Shown: positions 1,572 through 63,765, counted from the stretch's first letter. The stretch is 64,000 nt of DNA from an uncultured Holophagales bacterium (GCA_963741305.1 CAVUHL010000003.1:1434260-1498259); one strand, 5' to 3'. Program-made: numbers and translations. Notes: generated by a model from the letters alone, not told the origin.

Positions 1572-1576
1572 GTTCC

Positions 1577-3493: not shown

Positions 3494-4618
3494 ATGAAGA
3501 AACGGATGTTCTTGATGCTGTTGGCCACGGCCATCTTCATTGCCGCCATTGGCGTGGTGAAGATGCGCCAGATCAAGACGGCCAGCGCGCAGGGGGCTTC
3601 GTTCCAGCCGCCCCCTGAAGCCGTGACCACGGTCGTCGCCAAGCAGGATGTCTGGCCGGCGACGCTGCGCTCCATCGGCACCGTGGTCGCCTCCCAGGGA
3701 GTCATGGTCAGCGCCGACACGCCCGGCATCGTCGAGAGGATTTCGTTCACCTCCGGTAGGGCGGTGCGCGCCGGCGAGGTGCTGGTCGTGCTCGACACCA
3801 GCCAGGAGCGGGCGCAGCTCACCGCCGCCGAATCGCAGCGCGACCTCGCCAAGCTGAACCTCGACCGCATGCGCGACCTGTCGGAGAAAGGGATCATCTC
3901 GCGCTCGGAGTACGACCGGGCCGCCGCCGAGTCCGCCCAGGGCGTAGCCCGGGTGGGCGAGATCCGCGCCACGATCGACCGCAAAGTCATCCGGGCGCCG
4001 TTCTCCGGCGTCCTGGGCATCCGCAAGGTCAACCTCGGCCAATATCTGGCGGGCGGCGACCCGGTCGTCTCCCTTCAGTCCCTGCGCCCGGTCTTCGTGA
4101 ACTTCTCCGTGCCGCAGCAGGCCGTGGGCCGGCTGCAGATGGGCACCGAAGTGAGCGTGACCGCCGAGGGCCAGCCTCTCCTGGAGTCGGGGAAGATCAC
4201 CGCCGTCGACGCCGTCGTCGACGAGGCCACCCGCAACATCCAGGTCCAGGCCACGTTCGCGAACCAGGACGGGCGGCTGCGTCCGGGCATGTTCGTAGAG
4301 GTGCAGGCCAGCCAGGGCGAGAGCACTCCGGTGATCGCGCTGCCGGCTTCCGCGATCAGCTACTCGCCCTACGGCGACTCGGTCTTCATCGTCGAAAACG
4401 TCAAGGGGCCGGACGGCAAGAGCTTCCGCGGCGTCCGCCAGCAGTTCGTCAAGCTGGGCGGCGCGCGCGGCGATCAGGTCGCGGTGGTCACGGGGGTCAA
4501 GCCCGGTGAAGAGGTGGTCAGCTCGGGCGTGTTCAAGCTCAGGAACAACGCCCCCGTCCAGGTCAACAACAAGATCCAGCCAGCGAACAGCGCCACGCCC
4601 CGGCCGGAGGACAGTTAA
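3494..4618 (+). CDS. efflux RND transporter periplasmic adaptor subunit (HlyD/AcrA family membrane fusion protein)
   Basis: N-terminal TM anchor, coiled-coil and beta-barrel regions typical of MFP; stop TAA immediately followed by GTG start of RND pump. Confidence 0.85.
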   Translation: MKKRMFLMLLATAIFIAAIGVVKMRQIKTASAQGASFQPPPEAVTTVVAKQDVWPATLRSIGTVVASQGVMVSADTPGIVERISFTSGRAVRAGEVLVVLDTSQERAQLTAAESQRDLAKLNLDRMRDLSEKGIISRSEYDRAAAESAQGVARVGEIRATIDRKVIRAPFSGVLGIRKVNLGQYLAGGDPVVSLQSLRPVFVNFSVPQQAVGRLQMGTEVSVTAEGQPLLESGKITAVDAVVDEATRNIQVQATFANQDGRLRPGMFVEVQASQGESTPVIALPASAISYSPYGDSVFIVENVKGPDGKSFRGVRQQFVKLGGARGDQVAVVTGVKPGEEVVSSGVFKLRNNAPVQVNNKIQPANSATPRPEDS

Positions 4619-9623: not shown

Positions 9624-12600
9624 ATGACCCGATTTGTGTTGGTTCGTTGGCAGGCTGCGAAGCCGGGCTGGCTGGGGGCTCTTCTGCTCCTCTGCCCGAT
9701 CCTCGCGGCGGCGCTCAATCCGTCGCTCGCGGTCACCCAATACCGCCACGACCACTGGACCCGCCGTGAAGGTCTGCCGCAGATGAGCGTGAACGCCGTG
9801 CTGCAGGACCGCGCCGGCTTCCTCTGGCTCGGCACCCAGGAGGGGCTCGCCCGCTTCGACGGCGTCTCGTTCCGTGCGTTCAAGTTCGAAGACACTCCGG
9901 CGCTCGGCAACAGCTTCGTCGGGGCTCTCTTCGAGGACCGCCGCGGCCGGCTCTGGATCGGCGCGGGCGCGGGAAACATCTCCTGGTTCGACGGGGAGAC
10001 CATCGTCGGGCTCCCGCGCGGCGGCACGCTGCGCGGGGTCGCCTTCGGCTTTGCAGAGGGGTCAGAGGGCGAGCTGTTCGTGGTATTCCGCGGCGCCGGG
10101 CTCCACCGCATCGTGGGAGACCGGCTCGAAGCGGTCGTGGACCGCGACGGACGTCCGCTCGGCCAGATCGGCTCTCTCCTGCAGGGCCGGAACGGCGAGG
10201 TCTGGGCGGGCGGGGAAGGCAGGCTGTTCCGCTATCACCAGGGAGGTTGGACCCGCTACGACTTTCCGGGGTTGCCGGAGAGGCGTGTGACCGCCCTCGC
10301 CGTCCACCCGGATGGCGAGGTCCTGTTCAGCGAGGAGACCCAGACCGTGCGCCGGATGCGTGTGAAGGGCCGCTCCCTCGAGGACTCACTGGAGGAGATA
10401 CAGCCGGGCTGGCAGCTTCCCGCCGCCGTGCGCACGCTCTTCGTCGACCGCGACCGGACGGTCTGGATCGGCACCGAGAGCGGCGTGGCGCGCCGGCGCG
10501 CCGATCCTAAAGGCAGTATGGAGCTCTGGCCCCAAGGGCCGAGATCGACGGCCAACACCTTTTTCGAAGACCGGGAGGGAGGGCTCTGGGTCGGCACGAA
10601 CCTGGAGGGCCTCCAACGGTTGCGGGCGGACGAGGTCGTCCCCCTCGGCGCCAAGGAGGGCCTTCCGGACGACAAGGCCTGGAACGTCATGGCGGCTTCC
10701 GACGGCGCGCTCTGGGTGACCACCGACGGCGGTCTGGCACGGATCGTCGACGGCCGCATCGAGCGCGTCTCGGTGCCGGGGCTGCCGGGTGGGGACGGGG
10801 TCGCCCTGGGCGAGCGGCGCGACGGCTCGGTCTGGGTCGGAACCTACCGCTATGGGTTGTTCCGGCTGCCCCGTGACGATCGCGACGATGAGCCGCTCCT
10901 CCGGTTCACGGCTGATGAAGGGGTGCCGCCCGGGCCGGTCACCGTGGTCTTCGAGGATTCGCGGGGCAGGCTCTGGGTCGGCAGCCGCGAGGGCCTGGCG
11001 GTCGAGACAGGCAGACGATTCCAGGCGGTGCCTCTGGTCAAAGGCGGTACCCAGCCGTACATCTCGGCGATGGTCGAGGATCGGAAAGGGACGCTCTGGA
11101 TCGCCACCAACGTCGGCCTGTTCGCACAAAGTCCCGCGGGCGGGATCCGGCGCTACGGCCACGTCGATGGTTTGGCGAGCACGGCGATCTACGCGTTACT
11201 GCTCGACCGCGACGGCCGGCTCTGGATCGCGACCGGCGGCCAGGGGGTCCAGATCCTCGACGCCGGCCGGTTCCTGACGGTCGACCGCCGCCACGGCCTG
11301 CCCACCGGCTCGGTGACCTGGATGGTGGAGGACGACCGCGGCGGGCTCTGGTTCTCCTCGAACTTGGGCCTTTTCAGTGCCGGCCGGCAGGCTCTGCTGC
11401 GGACCGCGAGGGGGGAGACGAAGAGTGTCGAGTTCCGGCGCTTCGGCCTTGGCGATGGCATGCTCGAGGAGGAGTGCGCCGGCACCGGTCAGCCAGCCGG
11501 AGCGCGGACCCGCGACGGCCGCGTCTGGTTCCCGACCGCGGCCGGGTTGGTCTCCGTCGATCCCTCGCGGCTCACGCAGCCCGTCCCGCCCCCGGCCGTC
11601 TTCAAGGCCCTCGTCGTGGATGGCCGCTCGGCGCCGCTTCACCGGGGCCTGGGGGAGATACCGATCGAGCTCGCGCCTGGCCGCGGCGACATCGAGGTCC
11701 GCTTCACCGCGCTCGGCCTCGACGAGGCCCAGGGTACGCGGTTCCGCTACCGGCTGGACGGCTACGACGACACCTGGATCGAGGCCGGCCAGCGCCGGTC
11801 GGCGTTCTACACCCGCCTCGCCCCCGGCTCTTACGGTTTCGAGGTCCAGGCGCTCCACGACGACGGCGGCGCCTGGAGCGCTCCGGCATTGCTCGCGTTC
11901 CGGTTGCGCCCTCATTTTTTTGAGACGGCCTGGTTCCGCTCGCTCCTCGCGGCCGCCGCCGTTCTGGTGCTGTACGGCGGCATGCGCTGGCGGAGCCGGC
12001 GCCTTGAACGGCGGGCGGACGAGCTGTCGCTGGCCAACCGGAGCCTCGCGGAGGCGGCCGAGCGGCAGACGGCGCTGAGGCAGGAGGCCGAGGGCGCGCG
12101 GCGGCGGGCCGAGCAGGCGCAGCTCGAGGCCGAGCATCACGCGCGCGAGGCGCGCCGCGCCGAGGAGGCAAAGGGCGCGTTCCTGGCCACGATGAGCCAC
12201 GAGCTGCGGACGCCGCTCAACGGCGTTCTGGGCTTCTCCAGCCTGTTGCTCGATTCGACGCTCGATCCGCGCCAGCGCGAGTTCATCGAGATCATCCGGA
12301 CCAGCGGCCAGACCCTGCTGTCGCTCGTCAACCAGGTCCTCGACCTCTCGCAGAGCGACCGGGGCAAGCTCACGCTCGCGGCCGAGCCGTTCTGGGTGCC
12401 CGACTGTTTCGAGGAAGCCGTGGAGCTGGTGGCGCCCGCCGCCGCCGAAAGGGGGCTCGACCTCGCGCTCGCGATCGATACGGACGCCTGCCGCTTCGCG
12501 GTCGGCGACCGGACCCGCGTGCGCGAGATCGCCACCAACCTGCTCGCCAATGCGGTCAAGTTCACCGAGTCGGGCGGGGTCCTGGCCAAGGTCTCCGCGC

Positions 12601-22964: not shown

Positions 22965-22972
22965 GGAGAGCC

Positions 22973-23150
22973 CCCCGCAGGGGGCGGCATGTAATAGCCC
23001 GGCACGTGAGTGCCGGGTTTGGGAGATCCAACGCAGTCCAGCCCCGTAGGGGCGGCATACCCGGCATGCCGCCCCTACGGGGCTGGACTCTGTTCCTGCG
23101 CAACGACCCGGCGCTCACGCGCCGGGCTATTTCATGTCGCCCCTGCGGGG
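22973..23150. repeat. compound nested palindrome containing a GTAGGGGCGGC REP-type element; probable bidirectional terminator region between convergent lptE and rpsT
   Basis: Outer 30-bp inverted repeat ccccgcagggggcggcatgtaatagcccggc / gccgggctatttcatgtcgcccctgcgggg; inner hairpins cccggcacgtgagtgccggg, cccggcgctcacgcgccggg; central perfect palindrome ccagccccgtaggggcggcatacccggcatgccgcccctacggggctgg. Confidence 0.8.
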
Positions 23151-23161
23151 CTTAAGACGGC

Positions 23162-30404: not shown

Positions 30405-30680
30405 CATGGCGCTCCCCGGCGTGCGCACGCCGTTTTCGTCGGGGAGAAGACGCCCCCCTGCGTTGACGACGCGCTCCCCGATGTCCGCATGCAGCCAACG
30501 CAGGGGAGAGAGGCTTTCCCCCACGCCTACGGCGCGCTCCCTGACGTCCGCGGGCCGCCAACACTGGGGAGAGGCTCCTCCCCGCGAGGGAGAACACCGC
30601 TCCCGTACGTGTGCAAGCCGCCAGCTCGGGGGCTGGCGCGCTCCCCGACGTGCCCGAGCTGCCCGCCTGGGCCTCTCACC
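30405..30680. repeat. tandem degenerate repeats (about 60-100 bp units, four copies) sharing GCGCTCCCYGAYGTSCGC
   Basis: Units begin at about 30405, 30470, 30533, 30636 with shared gcgctccccgatgtccgc / gcgctccctgacgtccgc / gcgctccccgacgtgccc and ggggagag segments. Confidence 0.6.
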
Positions 30681-30865
30681 CAACCCGCGGGTAGAACGTT
30701 GCAACCCGGCTCCGGAATGTTTCAACCGGCGGGTTGAACGTTGTAACCCGCCGGTTGGCCGTCCCAACCCGCGGGTTGAATCATTCCAGCCGGCTCCCGA
30801 ATGATTCCGGAACGTTCGCGAATGATTCCACCCGGCGGTTTGCCTCCTCAACCCGCGGGGGGAAT
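30680..30865. promoter_or_regulatory. array of at least five AACCCGCGGGTT-like palindromes upstream of the EamA/GNAT-aminotransferase operon
   Basis: caacccgcgggtagaacgttgcaacccgg, caaccggcgggttgaacgttgtaacccgccggttgg, caacccgcgggttgaatcattcc, cacccggcggtttg, caacccgcggggggaatgttgcc; spacing about 28-45 bp. Confidence 0.4.
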
Positions 30866-30917
30866 GTTGCCGGTCCCGGGTTTGGCGTCCCGCGGACACG
30901 GTAGAATGCTTCCCCGG

Positions 30918-31832
30918 ATGTCCATAGCCAATCCCGAGCCGGGTCGCTCGCGCGCCGGGGCGATCCTGGCGGCGCTGTTCGCGGTCGTGGTGTGGGGCGC
31001 CTCGTTCATTGCGACCAAGATCGCGGTGGGGGAGGCCGCCCCGCTCACGGTCGTGTGGCTGCGCTTTGGAATGGGCGTGGCGGTGATGGGAGTCGTCGTG
31101 CTCGCCCGCCGGCAGCTCTCCCTGCCCGCGAAGGGGGACCTCGCCTACTTCGCCCTGCTCGGCTTCCTCGGGATCGCCTTCCACCAATGGCTCCAGTCCA
31201 ACGGGCTGGTGACCTCCCAGGCGAGCACGACTTCCTGGATCGTGGCCTCGACTCCGATCTTCATGGCCATCCTGGGCTGGATGGTGCTGGGTGAGGGGGT
31301 GAAGCCTCTGGCCGCCGTGGGGATCGCGGTGGCGGCCTTCGGAGTGCTGGTGGTGGCCACGCGCGGCAACCTCTCCTCGCTGGCTGCGGGCCGCCTCGGC
31401 GCGCCGGGGGACTGGCTGATCGTTGCCAGCGCTCCCAACTGGGCGGTCTTCTCGGTGCTCTCCCGGCGGGGGCTCAAGCGCTACCCCTCGGCGGGCATGA
31501 TGTTCTGGGTGATGACGTTCGGCTGGCTGCTGAGCGGTTTCCTTTTTTTGGCCGGTCCGGGGATCTCGGACATTTCGCGGCTGACCACACGCGGGTGGAT
31601 GGCCGTGGTCTTCCTTGGCGTTTTCTGCTCGGGGCTGGCCTACGTCTTCTGGTACGACGCGCTCAGCCGGCTGCCTTCCTCGCAGGTAGGGACCTTCCTC
31701 TACATCGAGCCGCTGGTCACGGTCGCGATCGCCGCCTCGATGCTCGGCGAGAAGCTGACCGTCCCCACCCTGGCCGGCGGCCTCGCGATCTTGATAGGAG
31801 TATGGATGGTGAGCTTGCGGAGCCCGTCATGA
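30918..31832 (+). CDS. EamA/DMT-family transporter (metabolite exporter)
   Basis: 10-TM protein with duplicated EamA domains; ATG at 30918 (M40 of longer ORF) preceded by the repeat region. Confidence 0.8.
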   Translation: MSIANPEPGRSRAGAILAALFAVVVWGASFIATKIAVGEAAPLTVVWLRFGMGVAVMGVVVLARRQLSLPAKGDLAYFALLGFLGIAFHQWLQSNGLVTSQASTTSWIVASTPIFMAILGWMVLGEGVKPLAAVGIAVAAFGVLVVATRGNLSSLAAGRLGAPGDWLIVASAPNWAVFSVLSRRGLKRYPSAGMMFWVMTFGWLLSGFLFLAGPGISDISRLTTRGWMAVVFLGVFCSGLAYVFWYDALSRLPSSQVGTFLYIEPLVTVAIAASMLGEKLTVPTLAGGLAILIGVWMVSLRSPS

Positions 31833-34412: not shown

Positions 34413-34534
34413 ATCTGTCAATCCTTCCGTAGGGAATACTCGCTTTTGCGGAAACGTTGATTGGAGCGAGCCGCCGGGAAGGTCTGCGGCTCTCATTCGA
34501 ACAACGAAGCACTTCTCAGAAGGAGAGCAACTCC

Positions 34535-35512
34535 ATGAAGAGACTCCTTGGGCGAAAGCTCGCCCTGACGGCTGTCCTCTGTGCCTCCCTGCCCGGCGCG
34601 CTCCACGCCGGTACCCCCTACACCGACACGCTCGACGCCAACCGCAACCGGCTCTTCGCTGATTGGGCTGCCCGGCACGGCCAGTCCGGAAACCTTTGCC
34701 AAGCGTGGGAAAACATGAACTGTACCGCCAAGGGCGCCTTCCTCACTCTCACGCACCGTCTCCAGGTCTCTTACATGCCGGACAACAAGACACCGCTCGA
34801 TCATGTGGATGGCATGTATGGCATCGTCGGCTACGACGGCCAGTGCCACGGCGATGGAAACCGGATCTTCGTGTCCACGGACGACTACCTCTGGTACGCC
34901 ATGGCCTACGCCAACATGGGTTACGTCATGCACCTTGACCAGAACGGCAACAATTACTGGACGGTCAGCGACGACATCATGGGGCCTCACGATCCGTTCG
35001 ATGCCAGCAACATGACGTCCTACGGCCACCCGCGGGGCCAGCTGCACTTCTGGGGCTCCGATTACGGCTTCTGGGTGGAGGTCCAGCGCGACGGTGTTCC
35101 CCCCGGCGTCGTCGACGAAAACATGATGGAGTTCGATCAGGACTACGACTGGAACCATCCGTCGAGCACCGAGTGCACCTACGACACGGACGGTTGCGAC
35201 ACTTGCGAGTCGGGGTACAACAAAGCCGGCTTCTCGGATGGAACGGGGCGGATGATCTATGCCCGGCAGCATCCCCACATCGAGGGCTGGTTCGCCGGTC
35301 CCGATTACGAGTGGGCTCCCGCGGGCTGCGAGCGCAAGTGGTGCGGCGGCTGCGGAAGCTGCGAGGCACAGACTTCCTGGGGATATCAGGCGGGACACCC
35401 GGCCTGGACCTGCTCGCAGGTCCCCTGTGGCCCGAACACCAATTACTCCTGCACGCTGGACGGCTACAAACAGCGCTGCGACTATCCCAACGGCTGGGTC
35501 CCGGCCAACTGA
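34535..35512 (+). CDS. secreted cysteine-rich hypothetical protein
   Basis: RBS AGGAGAG 8 nt upstream; signal peptide MKRLLGRKLALTAVLCASLPGALHA; about 20 Cys, Trp/Tyr/Asp-rich, no family recognised. Confidence 0.55.
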   Translation: MKRLLGRKLALTAVLCASLPGALHAGTPYTDTLDANRNRLFADWAARHGQSGNLCQAWENMNCTAKGAFLTLTHRLQVSYMPDNKTPLDHVDGMYGIVGYDGQCHGDGNRIFVSTDDYLWYAMAYANMGYVMHLDQNGNNYWTVSDDIMGPHDPFDASNMTSYGHPRGQLHFWGSDYGFWVEVQRDGVPPGVVDENMMEFDQDYDWNHPSSTECTYDTDGCDTCESGYNKAGFSDGTGRMIYARQHPHIEGWFAGPDYEWAPAGCERKWCGGCGSCEAQTSWGYQAGHPAWTCSQVPCGPNTNYSCTLDGYKQRCDYPNGWVPAN

Positions 35513-35605
35513 TCAATCAGCCCCGGCGCCCAACGCCCATGCCAAGCCGCGTTCATGCTGTAGCGAAGTGCAGGCATGAACGCGGCTTGAGCGCCTTGTC
35601 AGGTG

Positions 35606-36292
35606 TCATTTATTCGCGTGTGGGTGAGGAAGATCTTGCACCCACCATGTCGGGTGCTGAGGCCAGCCGGGTGGTGAGTCCGCCCAGCCTTCCTGACGCC
35701 CGAATGGCAACAGGTCTCGCATGGTGTTGGCGAAGACCAGCCGGTCAACCCCGCGTTGCGAGGTGGTGTAGGTGCGGTAAACCTCGTCGCCATCGCGGAG
35801 GAACACGCTAAGCAGGAAGCCGTCGCCAGCTCCACAGTCGGCGGAGAACGTCGTGCCTCGCGAGGACGCGAACGGCACGTGCATCCAACCCTGCCGCTCC
35901 CACACCCTCCGCAACTGCTCCAGCTGCATGTCGGACACTGTTGCCCAACTCACGCCAGCTTGGGCGAGCCGTGTGAGGCCATTCGCCGGGATGCCGTCGG
36001 TGACCCACGTGCAACCTGGACAAAGGTGGTCCGGGCCGAGGTCCATGAACTGGTAAAGCAGCAACTGGTCATGCCCGGCGAAGAGGTCGAGTAACGAGAC
36101 CGGGCCGCTCGGAGCCGCGAACGCGTAGTCGGATCGAAACCGAACCATCGGCAACCGGCGACGCTGAGCCGCCACTGCGTCCTCGGCGTGGGTAACCTTC
36201 TTCTCGGCGGCAAGGAGTTCCGCGTGGGCCTGAGCCCACTCTTCGGCACTGACGACGTTTGGCTTCGCGCCCGTAGCATGTGGTGTGTTCAT
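35606..36292 (-). CDS. DUF899 thioredoxin-like family protein
   Basis: Pattern EEWAQAHAELLAAEKKVTHAEDAVAAQRRRLPMVR...YAF..PSGPVSLLDLF.G...LLLYQFM.....CPGC matches DUF899; alternative start 36331. Confidence 0.6.
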   Translation of the reverse strand: MNTPHATGAKPNVVSAEEWAQAHAELLAAEKKVTHAEDAVAAQRRRLPMVRFRSDYAFAAPSGPVSLLDLFAGHDQLLLYQFMDLGPDHLCPGCTWVTDGIPANGLTRLAQAGVSWATVSDMQLEQLRRVWERQGWMHVPFASSRGTTFSADCGAGDGFLLSVFLRDGDEVYRTYTTSQRGVDRLVFANTMRDLLPFGRQEGWADSPPGWPQHPTWWVQDLPHPHANK

Positions 36293-36482
36293 AGTTCTCT
36301 TCTCAATCAGCGGAAACGCCCGCGATGACACCTACGCCTGGGGGCCTGCAGCGCGCACCTGGGCACGCGCCCAGCCGTCCTGTGCAGCGCACGACCGAAC
36401 TAAAGCTTCCTACATGGAACATGCCTATGACTCTACTCTGCCGTCTCTACCGTTGTACAGTGGGTTCTTTCCCAATGGCGCC

Positions 36483-37085
36483 CTACTGACTAGCGCCTAG
36501 GTAAGTTCCAAATAGCTGAAGACTGAACCCTGCAACAAGAAGAAGAAAGCCGAGAACGCCGACCGTGCCATCGGGCGTGCGAGCCTCGACAAACTCAAGA
36601 ACGCGAATTGGCAACTTGATCGTACCGGTAATCAGCATGTGCACCAGTTCCCCGAGGCCCCATAGCCCGATACCACCTCCAAAAAGCAACGCGAATAACA
36701 CTAATGGTATGCTGAAGTATAGGGGCTTTTCCCAGAGCCATATACCAGCCTGCGATAGCCACGCAACGAGACGCCCGTCAAACAGTTGATTAGCAAGTAC
36801 AAGCACGAAAAAGCCAGCGACGTAATGTAGGGTTATGAAGAGACCTGCATACCTTTCGCTGGGTATTTCACCATCTTCCCAAGCTTCCGGAGGAGTTGCC
36901 TCTGTCTCCTCATCGACAACCCGAATGCGCCGAATGCGTGGCGAGAGAGTATATCTGTAGGCACTCCGAAATACTCTCTCGCGTAGCACACGGAGGTTTT
37001 CGAGTTTGATCGCCTCGACAGCTACAAAGAAAGCTCCAATGATATCCAGCACTAGCCCAATCATCGTGAAGTGGTACGACTCCAT
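36483..37085 (-). CDS. hypothetical 4-TM membrane protein (200 aa), lower-GC islet
   Basis: ORF with four hydrophobic segments, GC about 52%. Confidence 0.45.
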   Translation of the reverse strand: MESYHFTMIGLVLDIIGAFFVAVEAIKLENLRVLRERVFRSAYRYTLSPRIRRIRVVDEETEATPPEAWEDGEIPSERYAGLFITLHYVAGFFVLVLANQLFDGRLVAWLSQAGIWLWEKPLYFSIPLVLFALLFGGGIGLWGLGELVHMLITGTIKLPIRVLEFVEARTPDGTVGVLGFLLLVAGFSLQLFGTYLGASQ

Positions 37086-37119
37086 AGATGTCGCTCAAGA
37101 CGGCCAACGGAGGTGCTGC

Positions 37120-37434
37120 TCAGCGGCCGTAAAGCGAAGCTTTTCGGTCCGCTAGAGCTGCCGGGCTGTTAGGCTCATCCCCTACGGACGTCGGCGGGAT
37201 AAGCACCCAAGCGTCTTGCTGGGCCACCGGTAACGCTTGCGTGCCCGGGGGATCACCAACATGCAAGAGTATGTAAGTCGGTTCTTCGTGCCTGTTGGTG
37301 ACCTGAGAAACCTCGTAAGAGACTCGAGTCTCGCCGACGCGGCGAATCCGATCGCCCTTCTTAAACTTCGGTGTGAACACTTCGGCCATATGCGTGCCCC
37401 CTGAGTTACTGTCGTGATGGTAACCGAATGTCAT
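37120..37434 (-). CDS. hypothetical small protein (89-104 aa)
   Basis: ORF in lower-GC islet, possible start at MAEVFTPKFKKGDRIRR. Confidence 0.35.
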   Translation of the reverse strand: MTFGYHHDSNSGGTHMAEVFTPKFKKGDRIRRVGETRVSYEVSQVTNRHEEPTYILLHVGDPPGTQALPVAQQDAWVLIPPTSVGDEPNSPAALADRKASLYGR

Positions 37435-37481
37435 AGTTTAAGAAACGTTACACAGGTCACCTAAGACGTTGAAATGATGAA

Positions 37482-37871
37482 CTATCTAATGAACGCCAAG
37501 GCGAGTGCAGTGAAGAGCATAGCACCAAGAAGCTGGTGACCCTTAAGCGCCAACTCAGGTGCTTCAGGGACGCGCCCCCGGACAAAGACGTCGGCGAGAA
37601 TCGCGCCGAACCCAGCAATTAGGTACAGCAGCATCATGCCCAAGTACGCTCCGAGAATGCTGGCGACGTGCCCGAGTAATCCAGGAACTTCAGGCTCCAG
37701 CTCCGCTCGGAAGACACCGTAAAGGACGATACCAGCTACCAACCAAAGGATCACTTTCCTCCCGGTTGTGGGCGTGCGTCCGTGGTAACCGTCCAAGGCA
37801 ACTCTGAGCGTGGGACTTGGCTCAGGTGTACTGTAGAGATGCTTGTTCAGGAGACGAGTGAGCAGGTTCAT
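37482..37871 (-). CDS. hypothetical 3-TM membrane protein (129 aa)
   Basis: ORF in lower-GC islet, hydrophobic segments. Confidence 0.4.
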   Translation of the reverse strand: MNLLTRLLNKHLYSTPEPSPTLRVALDGYHGRTPTTGRKVILWLVAGIVLYGVFRAELEPEVPGLLGHVASILGAYLGMMLLYLIAGFGAILADVFVRGRVPEAPELALKGHQLLGAMLFTALALAFIR

Positions 37872-38005
37872 CGGAGGTTCTCCATACTAGAGCCTGATCA
37901 ACAGCTAGCCATTGTTGCCAGACGCCTAACGGTGTATGAGTTCAGATGCAACACGAGCGCGAACGCGCGAGTGTTGTCCGCTACGACGAGGAGTTAGGCG
38001 ACCAG

Positions 38006-38584
38006 TCAATTCCGGGCCGACTGAGCTTCTTGTGGACAGGGAATGTTTCGCCAGCGACTCGGCGGACGGTAGAGGTCGGCGTTGACGTAGTAATCTGTCA
38101 GGAAGCCGAGGGATGTAATGACCACGATGTTGGCGCAGAGCGCTTCGTCGGGCACTTGACTTTCGTCGAGGGCTGCAACAAAGACCTCGACTTGCTTTGG
38201 CGCAAGCCTGATGGCTCCCTCTGGAGGTGGCTTCACTTGAATCCCGCCGTCGCGAAGCGTATTGCCCCGCTCATCAATGAAATTAATTCGTATGGCGCGC
38301 AACCAAATTTCCTTGCGGCTCGTGTTGACAATTCCTACGGACACCTCGGCTACACCGCTGGTGGGTTGTACCTCGACCGACTCCGCGTCTTCCCTGAGCC
38401 TGTCGTTGAGCTGAATGCCTAGCGATAGCACGGCGAGTAGCAGGCCTGCGGTGGCCACGATGCTATTGAGCACCTCGTGGGAAGATGCCTTCCTCTTGTC
38501 CGGTTCTTCGGGCATCGGGTTCGCTCCGATGGGCGCCTCTAGATCAGGATTCGACGAATTTCTGCCTTGCCGACAATCGAGCAT
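38006..38584 (-). CDS. hypothetical single-pass membrane protein (192 aa)
   Basis: ORF in lower-GC islet; one TM helix (VLNSIVATAGLLLAVLSLGI). Confidence 0.4.
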   Translation of the reverse strand: MLDCRQGRNSSNPDLEAPIGANPMPEEPDKRKASSHEVLNSIVATAGLLLAVLSLGIQLNDRLREDAESVEVQPTSGVAEVSVGIVNTSRKEIWLRAIRINFIDERGNTLRDGGIQVKPPPEGAIRLAPKQVEVFVAALDESQVPDEALCANIVVITSLGFLTDYYVNADLYRPPSRWRNIPCPQEAQSARN

Positions 38585-38885
38585 GCCCGGTGACTTATGA
38601 GAGCATGTCGATAAGCTTTTCGTTTCTGCACTTTAGCCTATGGTACGCCTAAGCCATGATCAGGTCAACTCAGCCAGGGTGTCGCGTAAGCCTTCTCCCT
38701 TTCGGAACGGGGCAGGACGCTTATGCGGCGTACTTCGGCCTGAGTCGCGGTCGTAAGTGGCTGATTCGAGAGCGGTGGCCCTGGAGCGGGCCATCCTTGC
38801 AGAAAGACGAGATCCCTGTCGCGGAGCCCGAAGGTGCGGCGACTTCTGCGTCAGAAGCGTGACAGATAAGCTGCCGGAGGCCTCG

Positions 38886-39404
38886 TCACGAATGGCTCTC
38901 TTTCTTCCTGGCAGGCGGCGGCTCCTTGGTGTAGAGGGCCTCTTGGTTCGCCTTGCCCGCCCGGACTTGATGGATGCGCCGCGCGGCGCTCATGCGGCGG
39001 AGGATCAAGGAGACGGCGGGCGGCTCTGCCGGCTGGCGCAGCGCCTGGGGGAAGCGGCGGTTGACCTCGTTGACCACGAGCCTCGTACCGAACCGCTCTC
39101 CGTCCGGACGGTCGGCCACGACCCGCTCCACCATCCCGGCCAGCGTCGGATGGCGTCCGAGGTCCTCTGCCGGTGGAGGCGCGGCCGATACCGGGACCGG
39201 AAAGTCGAGATCCGCCGCCACTGCCGCTACCGACCGGAACGACTCGAGGTGCGTCGTCGCATGCTCGAGCTCGGCCTCGCGCAGAGCCCGCTGCTCCCGG
39301 TGGTGCTCCTCCTGCCGGGCGTGCAACCCTATCTGCTCCTGCAGGGACTCGATTTGTCTCTCCAGGTTGACCAGAATCTCGGACAGCGAAAGGTTCAGGG
39401 CCAT
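38886..39404 (-). CDS. hypothetical coiled-coil protein (172 aa)
   Basis: ORF with heptad-like N-terminus (LSEILVNLERQIESLQEQIGLHARQEEHHREQRALREAELE); directly downstream of the 21-bp array. Confidence 0.4.
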   Translation of the reverse strand: MALNLSLSEILVNLERQIESLQEQIGLHARQEEHHREQRALREAELEHATTHLESFRSVAAVAADLDFPVPVSAAPPPAEDLGRHPTLAGMVERVVADRPDGERFGTRLVVNEVNRRFPQALRQPAEPPAVSLILRRMSAARRIHQVRAGKANQEALYTKEPPPARKKESHS

Positions 39405-39529
39405 CGTCCATCCTCATCGTCGAGACAGCCAGCCGGAACGCTACCCGTCAGGAGCCGCAAGTCGCGTCATCCTTTCCGATAAGCTCCACAGGCCGGGGGT
39501 TTCTGATGCGACGATAGCACAGGACGCGC

Positions 39530-40125
39530 GGTGGACCCTATCGGTGATGCGACCAGGAGCTGCGCGCGCGAGACAAACCCATCGCCGTCGCGGCAATCCC
39601 CATTCTGCCGCGACTTTGCCTTAAGTCGCGTCAGAAAGACCCATGGTGCCGCGACTTCAGCCAAAGTCGCGTCACCACAGCCTATCGGTGCCGCGACGAA
39701 ACCTGGAGTCGCGTCAGCAAAAGGATTCGTGACGCGACTATACCCTTCGTCGCGTCACTGTAATTCATCGTCGCGTCACCAAAGCCTATAGTCGCGTCAC
39801 GAAGCTTATGGTCGCGTCAGAAAAGCCTTGAGTCGCGTCATCAATGCTTATGGTCGCGTCGGCAAAGTCTTGAGTCGCGGCAGGAAAACCCGTAGTCGCG
39901 TCGCGAAGCTTATCGCTGACGCGACGATGGGTTGGGTCGCGGCAAAAAAGTCCAGAGTCGCGTCGGCAAAGGCCGGAGTCGCGTCAAAATGCCTTTCGGC
40001 GGGACGCCGAAGCTCTTGCGGCAGACGGCGAAGCCTTGGGTCGCGGCAGAAATGGCCCGGGTCGCATCACGAGAGCTTCGCGCAAGGCGGCGAAGCGTTG
40101 AGTCGCGACAGAAAAGCTCGTTGGC
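39530..40125. repeat. tandem array of about 27 copies of a 21-bp unit with conserved core AGTCGCGTCA (consensus GTCGCGTCANNAAAGCNTTNN)
   Basis: gtcgcgtcaccaaagcctata gtcgcgtcacgaagcttatg gtcgcgtcagaaaagccttga gtcgcgtcatcaatgcttatg gtcgcgtcggcaaagtcttga ...; constant 21-bp period, variable 3' half. Confidence 0.85.
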
Positions 40126-58205: not shown

Positions 58206-60191
58206 TTGAGAGAAACCTACGACGAGCCCGAATCCATGCCCTCCCACCCCTACGCGCCGAGTCGTTCCCAGAGCGCGCGCCTAGCGATCGACTTGGTCGC
58301 CCCCAAACGCTCGGCTCACGCTTCCATCCGAGGCTATCTGTACCAAGCTTGCGTAGGGGTGGAGCGCTGGCTGTCTCTGAAAGAGGGAGAGGTGCTGCTG
58401 TGTGAGGGCGATGAAGACTTGGACAGACTGCTCTTAGAGGAGGGTTTAGGCGTTATTGAGCAGGTAAAGGTGCGATCTCGGCCGGTCGAAGATCGAGTGC
58501 TGAGGGAGAGCTTGCAACGCTTCGCCGAGACCTTTGTGGCCCTGCGCCAGAGGGGGGAGGACCGCCAATTCGTCTTCATCTGCACAGCAGAGCGGGCCCG
58601 AGCGGGCCGTCGCTTCGACGGGATTGATCCAATGTCGTATTGGCTGGAGGGCGGGGAGAAGCGCTCGGAAGTGGAGCAGGAGACCGCCCGGGGAGCGGTG
58701 CGCCGGTGGCTTGCCCTAGAGACGGAATCGGCTACCAAGGACGGCGGTAACCTCCGGCACCTAGAGGGGGCCCTTGCTTGGCTGGACGGAGAGGTGGGGC
58801 GCTGGAGGGCGTTTCTTGACCGAGTTGAGTGGCGCTTCGGAGCGCCGGACATAGACGGAGTACGGGCCGTGATCGAGGAACGCCTGCAGCAGCGCTCCGA
58901 CGCCAACTCCCTACCCTTGGGTGAGGTCTTGGTGGACTGGCTGGTGAGCCGCGTCTTGAAGGCCTCGAGCCATCCCGGGCCAGTGGAGCGGGTGCTCACC
59001 CGGGAGGGGTTGAACGAACTCTTGGTCGAAGTGGCCGGGGAATTGACGGATTGGAGCCGTCGCCAGGGCTTTAACATCCGACAGGCTTTCAAGGAACTCG
59101 CCGGTCTGGGACCTCTCCTCACGCCAGGCGTTGCCTCGCTGCCTCTAGTGCATACAGACCACGGACAAAGTGGCCTTGTGCCCCCCGGCAAGCTACTGAC
59201 CGCCGCCTATGAGGTGGTTCCATTCGAGGAGGAAGCCCGCGCCGGGGAACTGGGTGAGTTAGAGGCTTGGTGCAACGAGAAGCGGTCTCGGATGGCTTGG
59301 TTATGGACGGGCGAACTAGGTGCTGGTAAAACGCGTTTGGCGATTGAGCTCTGTAGACGCCTAGCTGCCATTGGATGGGAGACAGGATTTCTCCGCTTGG
59401 ACGTGAGGACCGACGACTTGGAATCCCTGGTCCGGGGAGTCCTCCCTCGTTTAGTTGTCGTAGACAATGCTCAGACCCGCCTGGAGCTGTTGAAGGCGGT
59501 GCTCACGCGGGTCGGAGAGGCCCAGGGGCCGCCGAAGTTGCGGCTGCTTCTGCTCGCGCGACAGGCGGGCGCTTGGTGGGGGCTGCTCAAGCTAGCTAGT
59601 AGGGATGCAGAAGATTTGCTCTTGAGTTCCCCCATCGCCAGATCTCTGGGTCCCTTGGTGAAGAACGAAAGGGAGATCCTGGAAGCCTATCGACGAGCAC
59701 TCATCTCTTTTCACGAAATAACACACCAAGCAATGCCGGAGGATTTTTCTCCGCCCGTTTTTTCAGCCGAAGAGGCTCGATTGCCCCTTCTCCTTCACAT
59801 GCGGGCACTGGAGTCTAAAGACGTTGGCACCCTTCCGGGTGCTGACGGCTTGCTTTCCCGCCTTGTTAACCGTGAGAGGATGATCTGGGGAGCTGCCCTT
59901 CAAGATCTTAGGATTCTTTATGGCTCTATCCCTGCTTGTGCAGAGGGGATGATCGAGAAAACGATGGCATCTATTACGATGCTAGGTGGAGTGAGCAATC
60001 AAGTAGAGGCGGAGGCCGTTGCGGAGGCGGCGGGGTCGCATTCACCTGCTGAAAGGCGAGTTATCATAGAAGTGCTTCATCGTCTCTATTCTGGTCCAGA
60101 AGTTGGGGGGCAATTTGTGCAGGCGCTTCAACCGGACCGTCTCGGTGAGGAACTAGTCGCCCAGGTTCTGGGAGGACGCCATGACCGATAA
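58206..60191 (+). CDS. STAND-class P-loop NTPase with about 330-aa N-terminal domain of unknown function (possible PD-(D/E)xK-like nuclease effector)
   Basis: Walker A GELGAGKTRLAIELCRR, Walker B RLVVVDNAQ, helical C-terminus; N-domain motif ...VLLCEGDEDLD...VIEQVKV; GC about 58%, lower than backbone. Confidence 0.6.
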   Translation: MRETYDEPESMPSHPYAPSRSQSARLAIDLVAPKRSAHASIRGYLYQACVGVERWLSLKEGEVLLCEGDEDLDRLLLEEGLGVIEQVKVRSRPVEDRVLRESLQRFAETFVALRQRGEDRQFVFICTAERARAGRRFDGIDPMSYWLEGGEKRSEVEQETARGAVRRWLALETESATKDGGNLRHLEGALAWLDGEVGRWRAFLDRVEWRFGAPDIDGVRAVIEERLQQRSDANSLPLGEVLVDWLVSRVLKASSHPGPVERVLTREGLNELLVEVAGELTDWSRRQGFNIRQAFKELAGLGPLLTPGVASLPLVHTDHGQSGLVPPGKLLTAAYEVVPFEEEARAGELGELEAWCNEKRSRMAWLWTGELGAGKTRLAIELCRRLAAIGWETGFLRLDVRTDDLESLVRGVLPRLVVVDNAQTRLELLKAVLTRVGEAQGPPKLRLLLLARQAGAWWGLLKLASRDAEDLLLSSPIARSLGPLVKNEREILEAYRRALISFHEITHQAMPEDFSPPVFSAEEARLPLLLHMRALESKDVGTLPGADGLLSRLVNRERMIWGAALQDLRILYGSIPACAEGMIEKTMASITMLGGVSNQVEAEAVAEAAGSHSPAERRVIIEVLHRLYSGPEVGGQFVQALQPDRLGEELVAQVLGGRHDR

Positions 60192-63100
60192 AAGGCATGA
60201 GGGAGCCACACTCCCGAGTAAGCTCCTCCAGGTTGGAGGTCCGGCTGGCAGAAAACATCTCCTCACTTCTCTCACTCGTCTTGCCGCAAGGCGCCCTGAA
60301 GCGCGAGGTTGGTTGAAGAGCGCTCTATCGGAAAATTTAAAGGAACTAATGGAACCAGCCGTCTTAGTCGCATTCGAGACAGGCGATCCTATAGGCCAAG
60401 TTCTGGCGGAACTGATTGAGGAGCAAGGGGACGAGCAGATTGTTCGACAGCTGCAAGAACTCTGTGATCAGCCGCAATTTGAGAATTCCATACCTCTGCT
60501 CGAATTAGGCGTGATAGTAACAAAGAAGGTCCTAGAGAGTTACGGGTTAGATTTTTCCTCTGAACCTGCCGATAGGGTGCGGGCTTATGCTCATCTCTTG
60601 GAGAATCTTGCTACCCGCCTTGGAGCCCTGGGTCGACTGGAGGAAGCGCTAGAGCACGCTGAGCATGCCGTGGGTCTCTTTCGGGGTCTGCCCCCCGAGA
60701 CTCCTGATGTAGCAGCCGATTTGGGGAGAAGCTTAACCAACTTGGGCCTCCGTCTCAGTGCTTTAGGTCGTGTAGAGGATGCACTTTCAGCGAGCGAGGA
60801 GTCGATAAGTCTGGTTCGGCAGTCGTCTCGCCTTCAGTTCGCAAATCACGTCAATGTTCAGATCCTGGGTGATAACAACGTCGTCCTCATCGGCAGATCC
60901 CGCCTCGACCTTACGCTCTACCGCGGGCGGAGGGGGGCGGCTTTTTCCTCTCCTGGGGAGGCGGGCGAGGCAGCCGAGGTCCTCAGCCCCTATGCCATGG
61001 CGGTCCCTCTCGTAGGCCGGGAGCGGGAATGGTCCGATCTCTGGACTTGGCTGAACAGCGGCTTGTCTGTATCCATCCGTGTCGTCACCGCGCCTGGCGG
61101 TGGCGGCAAGACGCGCCTTGCACTGGAACTCTGCGAGGAGGCTGTCCGCCGGGGGTGGTACGCCGGCTTCGTGAAGACTACAGCGCCCTTGGACTCTGTT
61201 GCAGGAAAGTTGCCGCGCCCGACGCTCGCTGTGGTGGACTACGCCGCCGCCCGGCTCCCCTGGCTGCGGGAGTGGTTGGCCGACCTCGCCAGTTCGCCGC
61301 CCGTCGGCGGTCCGCTGCGCATCTTACTCCTCGAACGGAACGCTGATCCGGCGTTGGGTTGGTGGGCGGAGACGTTCCGGAGGGGGAGTTGTGGAGATGC
61401 AGCAGTCCGGCACCTGCTGGATCCTGCCGATGGTCCCTACCCACTCCCACCACTTCGCCAGGTGGAACAACGGCGGGCTATCCTAGAAGCAACGCTCCGG
61501 AGCATCGGGAGCGATTTACGGCTACCGACGCGCGAGGAGCACCCGGACTTCGACCGCCAGTTGGCGACGCTGAGTTGGGGTGGCGAGCCGCTCTTTCTTA
61601 TGATGGCTGCCCTTACCGGAGCGAAGTGCGGTCTGGGGCACGTCCTCTCCTTGAATCGGGCAGACCTAGCCTTCGAGGTCGCTCAGCGGCGCGAGTTGAA
61701 CCGGATTAGTCAGATCGGGATGAGCCGCCTAATCTCAGAGTCTTTGGTCTGCCACATGGCGGCCTACGTGACCCTCTGCCAAGGACTTACGCGCGAGCAA
61801 GCGGAGGTAGCAATTGTAGTTGAGGACGAGGCATTGCGGCACGATCGTCTCAGTGATCCGCTGGTGATCTACGGGGCTCTGTACAACGCCCTTCCTGGAG
61901 CCGGGAATGCCATCGCGCCCATTCTGCCTGATGTGGTCGGGGAGGCTGCAATCTTGATGGCGCTCGGCGAGATGGATTTGGCAAAGGCTAGCGAGGCGGT
62001 CGTCCGAGCAGCAAACCAGGCACCGGAAAGGGTAGCAGCGACTGTGATGCGGATGGTCCAGGACTTCGGTGATTACGATAGCCGGCCAATAGAATGGCTG
62101 AACCGACTGACCGAAGACGTTATCGATTTAGAGGGATTGAAGAGGCTCGTTGGTCAGTTGCCAGAGAAGACTATAGTATTACGCGAGTTCTCTGCTAAAG
62201 TGATGGCGGCGCTGCTCGAGCGACTCCGTGGGGAAGGCGAAAAGGAAGGCATAGCTCTAGCCAGCAATAATCTTTCTATATATCTGGCCTCCCTTGGCCG
62301 TAGAGAAGAGGCGTTGGAGGCAGTGCAAGAGGCGGTTTTCCTATACCGTGATTTAGAGCAGTTCCGTCCTGATGTGTTCGGCCCCGACCTTGCAACATCG
62401 CTCAACAACCTATCCAATAGTCTGAGCGAACTTGGCCATAGTGAAGAGGCTTTGGTGGCGGTGCAAGAGGCGGCTTCCCTATACCGGAATCTAGCGCAGT
62501 CGCGTCCTGATGCGTTCGGGCCAGACCTCGCAACATCTCTCAACAACCTGTCCAACCGTCTGAGCGATCTCGGACGTCGTGAAGAGGCTTTGGAGTCAGT
62601 GCAAGAGGCGGTTGCCCTATACCGGAATCTAGTGCAGTTCCGTCCTGATGCATTCGGTCCGGATCTCGCGACATCTCTCAGCAACTTGTCCAACCGCCTG
62701 AGCGATCTCGGTAGGCTGGAGGAGGCTTTTAACTCGGTACAGGAGGCTGTAGATCTGTACCGTGAGCTGTCGTTTTTGCGACCCGATGCTTACCGTCCAG
62801 ACTTTGCGACGTCTCTCAACAACCTATCCAACCGCCTAAGCGCCCTTGGCCATCGCGAAGAGGCATTGGCGGTCGTGCAGGAGGCGGTGGATGTGTACCG
62901 CGAGCTTTCGCAGGCTCGTCCCGACGCGTTCTATCCGAATCTTGCGCTATCACTCAACAACCTTTCCAATCATCTGAGCGCTCTTGGCCGTCAAGAAGAG
63001 GCTCTGGAGGCCGTGCAGGAGGCATTAGCTGTATATCGTGAGCTTTCTCAGTCTCGTCCCGACGCGTTCCGTCCGGACACGGCGAAGTCGCTCAACAACT

Positions 63101-63765
63101 TGTCGAATTATCTGCGCGCTCTTGGCCGTCCTGAAGAGGCTCTAAGGGCTGTCGAGGAGTCGGTGGCTGTATACCGTGAGCTTGCGCCATTGCGTCCGGA
63201 GGCATTTCGTCCGTACTTGGCAATTTCGCTCAACAACCTATCTGTTCATCTGAGCGCTCTTGGCCGACGTGAAGAGTCGCTGGAGACAGTAGAGGAGGCA
63301 GTGGATGTCTATCGCGAACTTTCGCGGTCCCGTCCTGATGCGTTCCGGACGGATCTTGCGACGTCGCTCAACAATCTTTCCAATCGGCTGAGCGATCTTA
63401 GCCGCCGTGAAGAGGCTCTGGCGGCAGTGCATGAGTCAGTGGCCATCCGGCGCGAGCTTTCGCAGTCCCGTCCTGATGCGTTCCGGCCGGACCTTGCCTC
63501 CTCTCTCCACAACGTTGCCCTCCGGCTGCAGGAACTTGGCAGGCTTGGTGAAGCGCTGGAGGCCTCGGAAGAGGCCGTCCGCATGCTCCTGCCTTTCTTC
63601 CAAGCGCTTCCGGCAGCTTTTCGGGGCTGGATGACATGGATGACCAGCTTGTATCAGAAGTTATCGGTGGAGAATGGCCGACAACCCGATCCCGAGCTGA
63701 TCCAAGCGATCGCCTCTTCATCGGAGCGAGTCGAGCCTTCTTCTGACCCAGGGAGCCCATCATGA
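60181..63765 (+). CDS. STAND-class P-loop NTPase with two N-terminal and about eleven C-terminal TPR (TPR_10/12-like) repeats
   Basis: ATG overlapping upstream stop by 11 nt; Walker A VVTAPGGGGKTRLALELCEE, Walker B TLAVVDYAA; eleven 42-aa repeats SLNNLSNRLSxLGRxEEALxxVQEAVxLYRELSQSRPDAFRPDLAT. Confidence 0.7.
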   Translation: MTDKRHEGATLPSKLLQVGGPAGRKHLLTSLTRLAARRPEARGWLKSALSENLKELMEPAVLVAFETGDPIGQVLAELIEEQGDEQIVRQLQELCDQPQFENSIPLLELGVIVTKKVLESYGLDFSSEPADRVRAYAHLLENLATRLGALGRLEEALEHAEHAVGLFRGLPPETPDVAADLGRSLTNLGLRLSALGRVEDALSASEESISLVRQSSRLQFANHVNVQILGDNNVVLIGRSRLDLTLYRGRRGAAFSSPGEAGEAAEVLSPYAMAVPLVGREREWSDLWTWLNSGLSVSIRVVTAPGGGGKTRLALELCEEAVRRGWYAGFVKTTAPLDSVAGKLPRPTLAVVDYAAARLPWLREWLADLASSPPVGGPLRILLLERNADPALGWWAETFRRGSCGDAAVRHLLDPADGPYPLPPLRQVEQRRAILEATLRSIGSDLRLPTREEHPDFDRQLATLSWGGEPLFLMMAALTGAKCGLGHVLSLNRADLAFEVAQRRELNRISQIGMSRLISESLVCHMAAYVTLCQGLTREQAEVAIVVEDEALRHDRLSDPLVIYGALYNALPGAGNAIAPILPDVVGEAAILMALGEMDLAKASEAVVRAANQAPERVAATVMRMVQDFGDYDSRPIEWLNRLTEDVIDLEGLKRLVGQLPEKTIVLREFSAKVMAALLERLRGEGEKEGIALASNNLSIYLASLGRREEALEAVQEAVFLYRDLEQFRPDVFGPDLATSLNNLSNSLSELGHSEEALVAVQEAASLYRNLAQSRPDAFGPDLATSLNNLSNRLSDLGRREEALESVQEAVALYRNLVQFRPDAFGPDLATSLSNLSNRLSDLGRLEEAFNSVQEAVDLYRELSFLRPDAYRPDFATSLNNLSNRLSALGHREEALAVVQEAVDVYRELSQARPDAFYPNLALSLNNLSNHLSALGRQEEALEAVQEALAVYRELSQSRPDAFRPDTAKSLNNLSNYLRALGRPEEALRAVEESVAVYRELAPLRPEAFRPYLAISLNNLSVHLSALGRREESLETVEEAVDVYRELSRSRPDAFRTDLATSLNNLSNRLSDLSRREEALAAVHESVAIRRELSQSRPDAFRPDLASSLHNVALRLQELGRLGEALEASEEAVRMLLPFFQALPAAFRGWMTWMTSLYQKLSVENGRQPDPELIQAIASSSERVEPSSDPGSPS

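Follow-up and report, generated by a model that had tools for sequence, protein, structure and literature searches.

Five small minus-strand genes of an uncultured Holophagales bacterium: probable integron cassettes beside a predicted winged-helix gene and its repeat array

Do five consecutive small genes on the minus strand of an uncultured Holophagales bacterium form a single acquired system, or did they reach the chromosome separately? The genes, named g1 to g5 here, lie in a 64,000-nucleotide stretch of the assembly GCA_963741305.1 (CAVUHL010000003.1:1434260-1498259), which is called the window below and is numbered from its first letter. The original prediction, made from the sequence alone, took them for a compact, horizontally acquired module of low GC with a possible role in defence or abortive infection. 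The analysis reported here leads to another reading. The genes g1 to g4 are very probably three integron cassettes (one carrying g4, one carrying g3 and g2, and one carrying g1) that are stranded as a CALIN (a cluster of attC sites that has no integron integrase) and are not a module. The evidence consists of attC sites at gene ends, a mosaic of homology blocks that abut at these sites, homologues that occur in cassettes elsewhere, and integron-integrase remnants in related loci.

The five open reading frames (ORFs) exist as they had been called, at 36483-37085 (g1, 200 aa), 37120-37434 (g2, 104 aa, or 89 aa at 37120-37389 as called on an identical Logan contig), 37482-37871 (g3, 129 aa), 38006-38584 (g4, a mechanical ORF of 192 aa) and 38886-39404 (g5, 172 aa), all on the minus strand. 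Their described bounds, a DUF899 gene on one side and an array of 21-bp period on the other, are also present. Base composition separates the genes into two groups. The GC dip extends over 36250-38800 only, with a GC content of 0.51-0.58 versus about 0.67 in the flanks. The GC content of third codon positions (GC3) is 0.52-0.64 in g1 to g4, the highest value being that of g4 (0.64), versus about 0.82-0.95 in the native genes of the window. The GC3 of g5 is 0.84, which is native codon usage and therefore places g5 outside the low-GC islet, so that the predicted five-gene islet holds for g1 to g4 but not for g5. Horizontal acquisition is borne out by the foreign composition of four of the five genes and by a block with g3 and g2 that is 93% identical in DNA to a contig of a metagenome-assembled genome (MAG) of the Pyrinomonadaceae.

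attC sites and the mosaic structure of the islet

An attC site is an imperfect palindrome of 57-141 nt with the outer boxes R'' (RYYYAAC) and R' (GTTRRRY). Two covariance models were used. Model R1 was made from five in-register attC sites of the related loci L009 and L013, with none from the window, and it contains the R stem, the L stem and one unpaired column. The variable length of the spacer had put R'' out of register in MAFFT alignments, and the other sites were realigned by R1. Model R2 was then made from 25 realigned R1 matches in the fetched loci, all of them on the gene strand. Both models were run over the full 64 kb on both strands with filters off, and the E-values obtained in this way are rough.

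The top match in the window by both models is attC-B (37102-37174, minus strand), with 44.2 bits by R1 (E=2e-9) and 46.4 bits by R2 (E=1e-8). The opposite strand of the same locus gives 18 bits (R1) and 13 bits (R2) only. It is a well-preserved site at the close of the g3+g2 cassette, and it overlaps g2 at the 3' end of that gene. Its boxes (37102-37170) read GCCTAAC...GTTGGCC, with one departure from the R' consensus. Folded as DNA, attC-B gives an R stem, an unpaired spacer of 4 nt on each side and a long stem (z=-3.0); in the plus strand, two bases bulge from the 3' arm of the long stem. Bulged bases on that arm are the mark of the recombining bottom strand in the attC structures of aadA7 and of VCR (the Vibrio cholerae repeats), and their place on the plus strand agrees with the location of the genes on the minus strand. 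The inner sequence of attC-B recurs in L009 in the attC of another cassette, which carries a DUF4062 gene.

The second site, attC-A (37924-37999, minus strand), closes the g4 cassette and begins 7 nt past the g4 stop. It reads cGCCTAAC...(62 nt)...GTTAGGCg and is the only perfect RYYYAAC...GTTRRRY pair that a strict regular-expression search found in the islet. Its outer boxes form a perfect stem of 8 bp (CGCCTAAC/GTTAGGCG), and the inner (L-box) pairing is largely lost. The site reaches 16.1 bits with R1 (E=0.065) and 21.8 bits with R2 (E=0.007), the latter being the second-best R2 score in the window. Its predicted fold consists of the R stem and a central or terminal stem without L-box pairing, with z=-1.0 to -1.1 versus shuffled sequences. 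To judge from these features, attC-A is probably inactive. Both sites are on the gene strand and directly at the 3' end of a gene, and they are about 750 bp apart.

The family of sites to which the models were fitted shows the marks of a conserved structure. The AAC/GTT core is nearly invariant, compensatory changes were seen in 11 of the 12 L-stem pairs, and one column is unpaired. Of all cells, 87% are paired versus 70% after shuffling and 28-42% with slid partners. One type of attC, 'AGCGGAC...CCGCTGAG', is common to the window, L009, L013 and L035.

When the window was compared with the fetched loci by blastn, the islet proved to be a mosaic of three gene-sized homology blocks with different closest relatives, which abut at the R' boxes of the short attC palindromes. 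The g4 block (37991-38536) is 81% identical in DNA to L012, the g3+g2 block (37099-37935) is 93% identical to positions 778-1618 of L013 with sharp ends at both attC R' boxes, and the g1 block (36494-37109) is 75% identical to L009. The homology with L013 begins 5 nt before, and stops 9 nt past, the two G|TT crossover points, and that with L009 begins a single nucleotide (1 nt) away from the G in the R' box of attC-B. The block breakpoints are found within 1-9 nt of the R' crossover points. Upstream of the common block, L013 has the body of another attC with the same GTTAGGC at its end. A different attC body with the same terminal GTTAGGC is the pattern that would be expected from cassette exchange at G|TT.

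Similar results were obtained with the proteins. All five were compared by tblastn with 15 related loci, and single genes or the g3+g2 pair only were recovered, with the exception of L001, which is 100% identical and belongs to the same strain. The contexts of g1 homologues, of which six different ones were examined (L002-L009), do not have g2 to g5, and three contexts of g4 homologues (L010-L012) do not have g1, g2, g3 or g5. The genes g3 and g2 adjoin each other in L013-L015, but the next genes there differ from those of the window. In L008 a repeat of about 90 nt, GCCGCCCAACAACGGCATGCACCCGAC...GGGTGATGCCGGGCGTTAGGC (RYYYAAC...GTTRRRY), follows each same-strand ORF, the g1 homologue included. 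An attC after each ORF was also seen in L009 and L013, and the arrangement in L011 and L006 is similar. R2 matches number four in L011 and ten in L008, where one belongs to the training set of R2, and one match in L006 stands directly after the g1 homologue. The g1 homologue is therefore followed by an attC in L006, L008 and L009. On this comparison, each cassette would be an independently mobile unit, with its ORF or ORFs upstream of an attC and G|TT in the R' box as its boundary. The original prediction had itself named a failure of the genes to co-occur elsewhere as evidence against a five-gene module, and apart from g3 with g2 they do not co-occur. Because of this lack of co-occurrence, and because g5 is coupled to a repeat array (see below), the five genes are not one module.

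The cassette proteins have few recognisable features. No significant family was found for g1 to g5 in Pfam, PADLOC, PHROGs or NCBIfam, in agreement with the original prediction, which had recognised none. In PADLOC-DB v2 not one family came up with an E-value of 1 or lower for any of g1 to g5, for the DUF899 protein or for a neighbouring protein of 351 aa. The sole NCBIfam line, TrbF for g1, has 19 bits versus a cut-off of 144 and was taken as noise. A hydropathy scan agrees with the three membrane proteins described before, with four transmembrane (TM) segments in g1, two clear ones in g3 and one N-terminal segment in g4; g2 and g5 have none and are soluble. The term orphan applies strictly to g2 and g3 only, whereas five related clusters were found for g4, 45 for g1 and 255 for g5. 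Members of the g1 family are about 190-200 aa long and conserved from end to end, with four TM helices and the conserved residues D14, E24, H87, E146 and H149 in or near the membrane. The AlphaFold2 (AF2) model of g1 is confident (mean predicted local distance difference test, pLDDT, 90.5), and no informative relative of the model was found in the PDB. In g4 an N-terminal TM helix is followed by a soluble domain. All five g4 homologues are 160-169 aa long and match from residue 24 of the 192-aa ORF, and the true start was therefore placed at 38515, which gives a product of 169 aa (38006-38515). One g4 homologue lies downstream of an integron-integrase remnant (L012) and another is on a contig with four attC sites (L011).

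The g3+g2 cassette has a predicted span of 37108-37929 on the minus strand, with g3 as the first gene and g2, an 89-aa soluble protein, as the second. No attC was found between the two genes, where the fold has z=+0.65 and neither covariance model has a match. Among 5.8 billion clusters g3 has no relative beyond its own 90% cluster. The clusters of g3 and g2 each hold one further member, and these are adjacent genes of a Pyrinomonadaceae MAG (89-95% amino acid identity, 95% for g3); the g2 counterpart in L013-L015 has been called as 71 aa. Sequence searches of the PDB with g2 and g4 returned nothing.

Several observations weigh against cassettes. Only two attC sites are statistically supported, and one of them, attC-A, is borderline and without L-box pairing. 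The models are partly dependent on attC-B, as one training site (L009e) shares its inner sequence and R2 includes its orthologue of L013. The presumed outer sites, after g1 (36318-36405) and before g4 (38640-38745), were not detected by R1 or R2, and their folds are no better than those of shuffled sequences. Some g1 homologues (L002-L005) occur in contexts without a detectable attC. Weak covariance-model matches also occur elsewhere in the window, for example at 23036-23088 and 35528-35604. Further palindromic matches of the form RYYYAAC...GTTRRRY (62 and 104 nt) were noticed at 30678-30781, just upstream of an EamA-family gene (30801-31832). With the attC models they score 9-10.5 bits only, and they are probably an unrelated hairpin.

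Integrase, class of element and rival explanations

The presence of an integron integrase gene (intI) was tested within the 64-kb window. No PF00589 match was obtained for any of the window's ORFs that were scanned against Pfam. A tblastn search with an IntI1 query, which served only as a probe, also found nothing in the window (best E=0.16), and the same probe recovered integrase remnants in L012 and L027 as a positive control. The remnant in L012 (1470-1694, 75 aa) is just upstream of the g4 homologue, and that in L027 (8532-8654, 43 aa) is between a g5 homologue and a cassette. Both belong to PF00589 and have TIGR02249 'integron integrase' as their best NCBIfam match (E=5e-30 and E=1e-16, respectively), at the C-terminal end of the model. 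In classical integrons intI is divergent from the cassettes, whereas these remnants share a strand with the cassettes. No relic of intI was found in the g5-g4 spacer of the window by six-frame translation or by blastn against L027 and L012. No recognisable attI or cassette promoter (Pc) was seen at the locus, where the only promoter-like match is at 38668-38640. The locus is not a complete integron, being without intI and without a recognisable attI.

A CALIN has been defined as two or more attC sites of one strand that are separated by less than 4 kb and have no intI in the vicinity (PMC4889954; PMC9024848). The window has two minus-strand attC sites about 750 bp apart and no integrase within 64 kb, and since neither an integrase nor a remnant was found there, the locus falls under CALIN. 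It is like other CALINs in having no intI or intI pseudogene nearby and in the small size of the array. CALINs identified with IntegronFinder have an average of 5-6 attC sites and most have fewer than 6 (PMC4889954; PMC9024848), whereas the array of the window has only two well-supported sites, one of them without L-box pairing, and so represents the decayed extreme of this range. The array also differs in its host, since it is in a chromosome of the Acidobacteriota, probably of the Thermoanaerobaculia, and the phylum Acidobacteriota is not mentioned in the main text of PMC9024848. Relatives of g4 and g5 occur in Thermoanaerobaculia MAGs, and together with two Acido-Lenti-1 RNAs in the window they point to an acidobacterial chromosome as the source, here on a contig of 8.38 Mb. 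The sedentary chromosomal integrons, such as the superintegrons of Vibrio and Xanthomonas, are similar in being chromosomal and in having cassettes mostly of unknown function and lineage-related attC sites, but they have tens to hundreds of cassettes versus three in the window, where no integrase, attI or Pc was identified.

The events that could have produced such a locus can be outlined. The low-GC islet (about 36480-38650) would be a minus-strand array of three promoterless units, each ending in an attC. IntI would have inserted each cassette separately by site-specific recombination on the folded bottom strand of attC, which is the plus strand of the window, with G|TT in the R' box as the crossover point. 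Loss of the integrase gene from the neighbourhood would have come later and left the CALIN. Decay of the sites would have been uneven, with attC-B well preserved, attC-A left without inner pairing and the outermost sites hardly recognisable. In their present state the cassettes are probably fixed passengers, which IntI acting in trans could still mobilise. Their transcription would most likely be read-through from g5, or would start from the promoter-like site at the junction.

Two other explanations would do without cassettes. The same strand, the short spacers and the three membrane proteins would suit a single acquired operon encoding a membrane-targeted defence or abortive-infection system, and some g1 homologues are near defence-type genes, namely in L002 (SLFN_AlbA_2 and PIN), in L008 (Fic and a restriction-modification gene of the MmeI type) and in L005 (DUF87 and a DNA methylase). 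Against this, six g1 contexts and three g4 contexts are without the other genes, the attC sites split the genes into units, g5 is native with an array of its own as partner, and the searches of PADLOC and PHROGs came back empty. A defence operon of five genes is on balance extremely improbable, and the defence role originally proposed has found no direct support. The palindromes could also be ordinary terminators or repeats of the REP (repetitive extragenic palindromic) kind, in a generic genomic island or in the remnant of a prophage or transposon. GC-rich genomes are rich in hairpins, weak model matches do occur elsewhere in the window, and the fold of attC-A is no better than those of shuffled sequences. 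However, no tRNA and no phage families (PHROGs) were found in the 64-kb window, nor was any integrase found by Pfam scans or tblastn. The palindromes have RYYYAAC/GTTRRRY boxes, score in a strand-specific manner and coincide with the homology breakpoints, and the same family of sites covaries and adjoins IntI remnants in other contigs. A generic island is accordingly very unlikely.

Two further explanations accept the cassettes. The integrase may never have been resident, and the cassettes may have entered a secondary (non-att) site downstream of g5 through the action of an IntI encoded elsewhere in the genome. Insertion of cassettes by IntI into genomes outside att sites has been reported (bioRxiv 10.1101/2022.09.11.507474) and is one proposed origin of CALINs (PMC4889954), and no relic of intI was seen in the g5-g4 spacer or elsewhere in the window. 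However, the remnant of the IntI C-terminus in L027 is exactly between the g5 homologue and the cassette, which favours the loss of a resident intI, and the order of array, g5 and cassette recurs in L023 and L027. This variant is somewhat unlikely. A different question is whether at least one of the cassettes is by itself a self-contained anti-phage gene, for example the g3+g2 pair (a membrane effector and a soluble partner) or g1. Two-gene cassettes are typically toxin-antitoxin-like, which would count in favour, as would the location of g1 homologues beside SLFN_AlbA_2, PIN and restriction-modification genes in some contigs. It has been shown that phage defence can be encoded by mobile-integron cassettes of unknown function (bioRxiv 10.1101/2024.07.02.601719). 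The window genes resemble them in being small cassette genes of no recognisable family, but no similarity to a described defence protein was found for their predicted products. No cassette protein has a sequence match to a defence family, and g1, the only one modelled, has no structural match. Several g1 contexts are without defence genes, and most cassettes are diverse and of unknown function, so the prior for any one of them is low. An anti-phage cassette is therefore unlikely, and three stranded integron cassettes of no assigned function are the preferred reading of g1 to g4.

The g5 gene and its repeat array

The g5 family comprises 255 clusters at 50% identity, with members of about 165 aa that are conserved over their full length. 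In the AF2 model of g5 (pLDDT 91.4), residues 7-65 form one long helix at the N-terminus, and the C-terminal part is a winged helix, with a bundle of three helices (88-97, 107-117 and 128-140) and a beta-hairpin wing (strands at 145-148 and 157-159). Foldseek matched the C-terminal domain to Fur, PadR, MarR and BlaI (probability about 1.0, E about 0.01), and weak winged-helix Pfam matches were found among members of the family. The predicted product of g5 is a winged-helix DNA-binding protein, and the gene, native in composition, is not a cassette.

Directly upstream of g5 is the repeat array (39461-40116, minus strand), with about 23 G[ACT]CGCGAC motifs (39468-40109) at a spacing of mostly 21 bp. 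The sequence GACGCGAC occurs 18 times in the window versus 5.7 expected, and 15 of the 18 copies are within 39461-39985. In every close homologue of g5 (at least 64% identical; L021/L028, L023-L027 and L029), 8-14 motifs of the GMCGCGAC type were found within 900 bp upstream and none downstream, and the distant homologues are without the motif. The g5 loci have no synteny with the flanking genes of the window. The array and g5 are therefore a two-part unit, conserved in seven loci besides the window, in which g5 most likely binds its own upstream array as a multi-site operator. Iteron- or centromere-like arrays with an adjacent gene for a small DNA-binding protein are known from plasmid Rep proteins with their iterons and from TubR/tubC. 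The g5 unit is similar to them in having many direct repeats, about two helical turns apart, upstream of a winged-helix gene and conserved together with it. It differs in having no replication or partition partner nearby, in its roughly 23 copies, far above typical sets of iterons, and in its chromosomal location.

The unit is linked to cassettes in more than one locus. In L023 and L027 a g5 homologue is followed by same-strand ORFs of low GC3 and an attC, at 9741-9814 (43 bits) and 9638-9708 (46 bits), respectively, so that the order of array, g5 and same-strand attC cassettes is common to the window, L023 and L027. L029 has a low-GC3 ORF after g5 with no detectable attC, and L021 has neither. 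In L035 four attC sites are followed by the 5' half of an attC (GCCTAAC-CGGCTGCTCCAGCGGACC, with the R'' and L'' boxes), which is fused to a g5-like gene, the fusion spanning 3990-4288. This gene is truncated at the 5' end, with the first 16 codons lost, and has an internal deletion, and L035 looks like a rearrangement that joined a cassette array to g5. In all, g5 or a g5-like gene adjoins attC cassettes in four loci (the window, L023, L027 and L035). Elsewhere in the fetched sequence (about 190 kb) attC matches are rare, which makes a chance association unlikely, although the sample is small and the loci may share ancestry. Array and g5 could tentatively be assigned to a lineage-specific chromosomal integron of Thermoanaerobaculia-like Acidobacteriota, either as one of its conserved parts or as its favoured docking site, a proposal that is still doubtful. 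The g5 protein might serve as a regulated stand-in for Pc, coating the array and controlling the transcription that enters the cassettes, or it might organise the DNA for recombination. We know of no accessory protein with such a repeat array in any described integron platform.

Outer limits, neighbouring features and significance

The outer limits of the array are uncertain. On the side of DUF899, a candidate decayed attC after g1 was noted at 36325-36400 (minus strand), the inner part of which resembles by eye the L013 attC 'GCGCTGCACCCGACGGCTGGGCTCGCGCCCAG'. Its R'' box is lost and its R' box reads GTAGGTG. On the other side, a putative upstream junction is at 38640-38740 (minus strand), with the sequence 'GCATAAG...(85 nt)...C|TTAGGCGT'. 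The shift in GC begins here, and TTAGGCGT was recognised by eye as a cassette-start motif. The promoter-like match TTGACC-17-TACCAT at 38668-38640 overlaps this putative junction.

The DUF899 gene (Pfam E=1e-50), which together with its 3' hairpin occupies 35528-36333 on the minus strand, has a somewhat low GC3 of 0.74. The gene itself (35605-36333) is a sharply bounded block of 729 bp that is 93% identical to L016-L020. Its neighbours in L016-L020 are small same-strand genes (tautomerase, GNAT, GFA, PEP mutase, MAPEG and cupin) with no detectable attC, and the block is an instance of gene-sized mosaicism. DUF899 is at most a tentative candidate for a fourth cassette. A perfect hairpin of 18 bp without bulges (35528-35604; z=-5.7) follows the DUF899 stop, between this gene and the convergent gene for the 351-aa protein. 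With 15 bits by R2 (E=0.26), it looks more like a terminator, possibly a bidirectional one, than an attC.

Other features of the window and of the fetched loci were also recorded. The 351-aa protein (34457-35512) is cysteine-rich, with a signal-peptide-like N-terminus, and has no match in Pfam, PADLOC, PHROGs or NCBIfam. Two Acido-Lenti-1 RNA motifs on opposite strands (22969-23152; 49 and 62 bits) flank the GC-rich hairpin at 23036-23088. A second stretch of low GC (58206-63765; 0.55-0.64) encodes a 661-aa protein with a faint STAND NTPase match and a 1194-aa TPR protein, and may be another acquired island. GC is also low at the start of the window (201-3191), which carries an ORF of 456 aa that no Pfam family matches and one of 306 aa whose transposase domain is of the IS200-like Y1 type. 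L013 has, at 5400-7530 and after an attC with a seemingly displaced 3' half, a reverse transcriptase of 431 aa (RVT_1), and the element is also present in L014 and L015. It has the look of a group II intron that has entered an attC site, as in the group IIC-attC introns.

Overall, what had been taken for a possible new five-gene defence module is replaced by three independently captured cassettes in an acidobacterial chromosome, and these belong to a known kind of element. Small same-strand clusters of orphan genes in GC-rich soil bacteria can be explained as stranded cassettes, and the lineage-specific attC model can be used to find more such arrays. The 93% DNA identity of the g3+g2 block documents a recent exchange of cassettes between an apparently Thermoanaerobaculia-like genome and the Pyrinomonadaceae MAG. 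The g1 family, which is cassette-borne, has four TM helices and 45 clusters and is confidently modelled, is a reasonable target for functional screens. The repeated association of cassettes with the array and g5 is the sole lead that is possibly new, and the only part of these findings that could change thinking.

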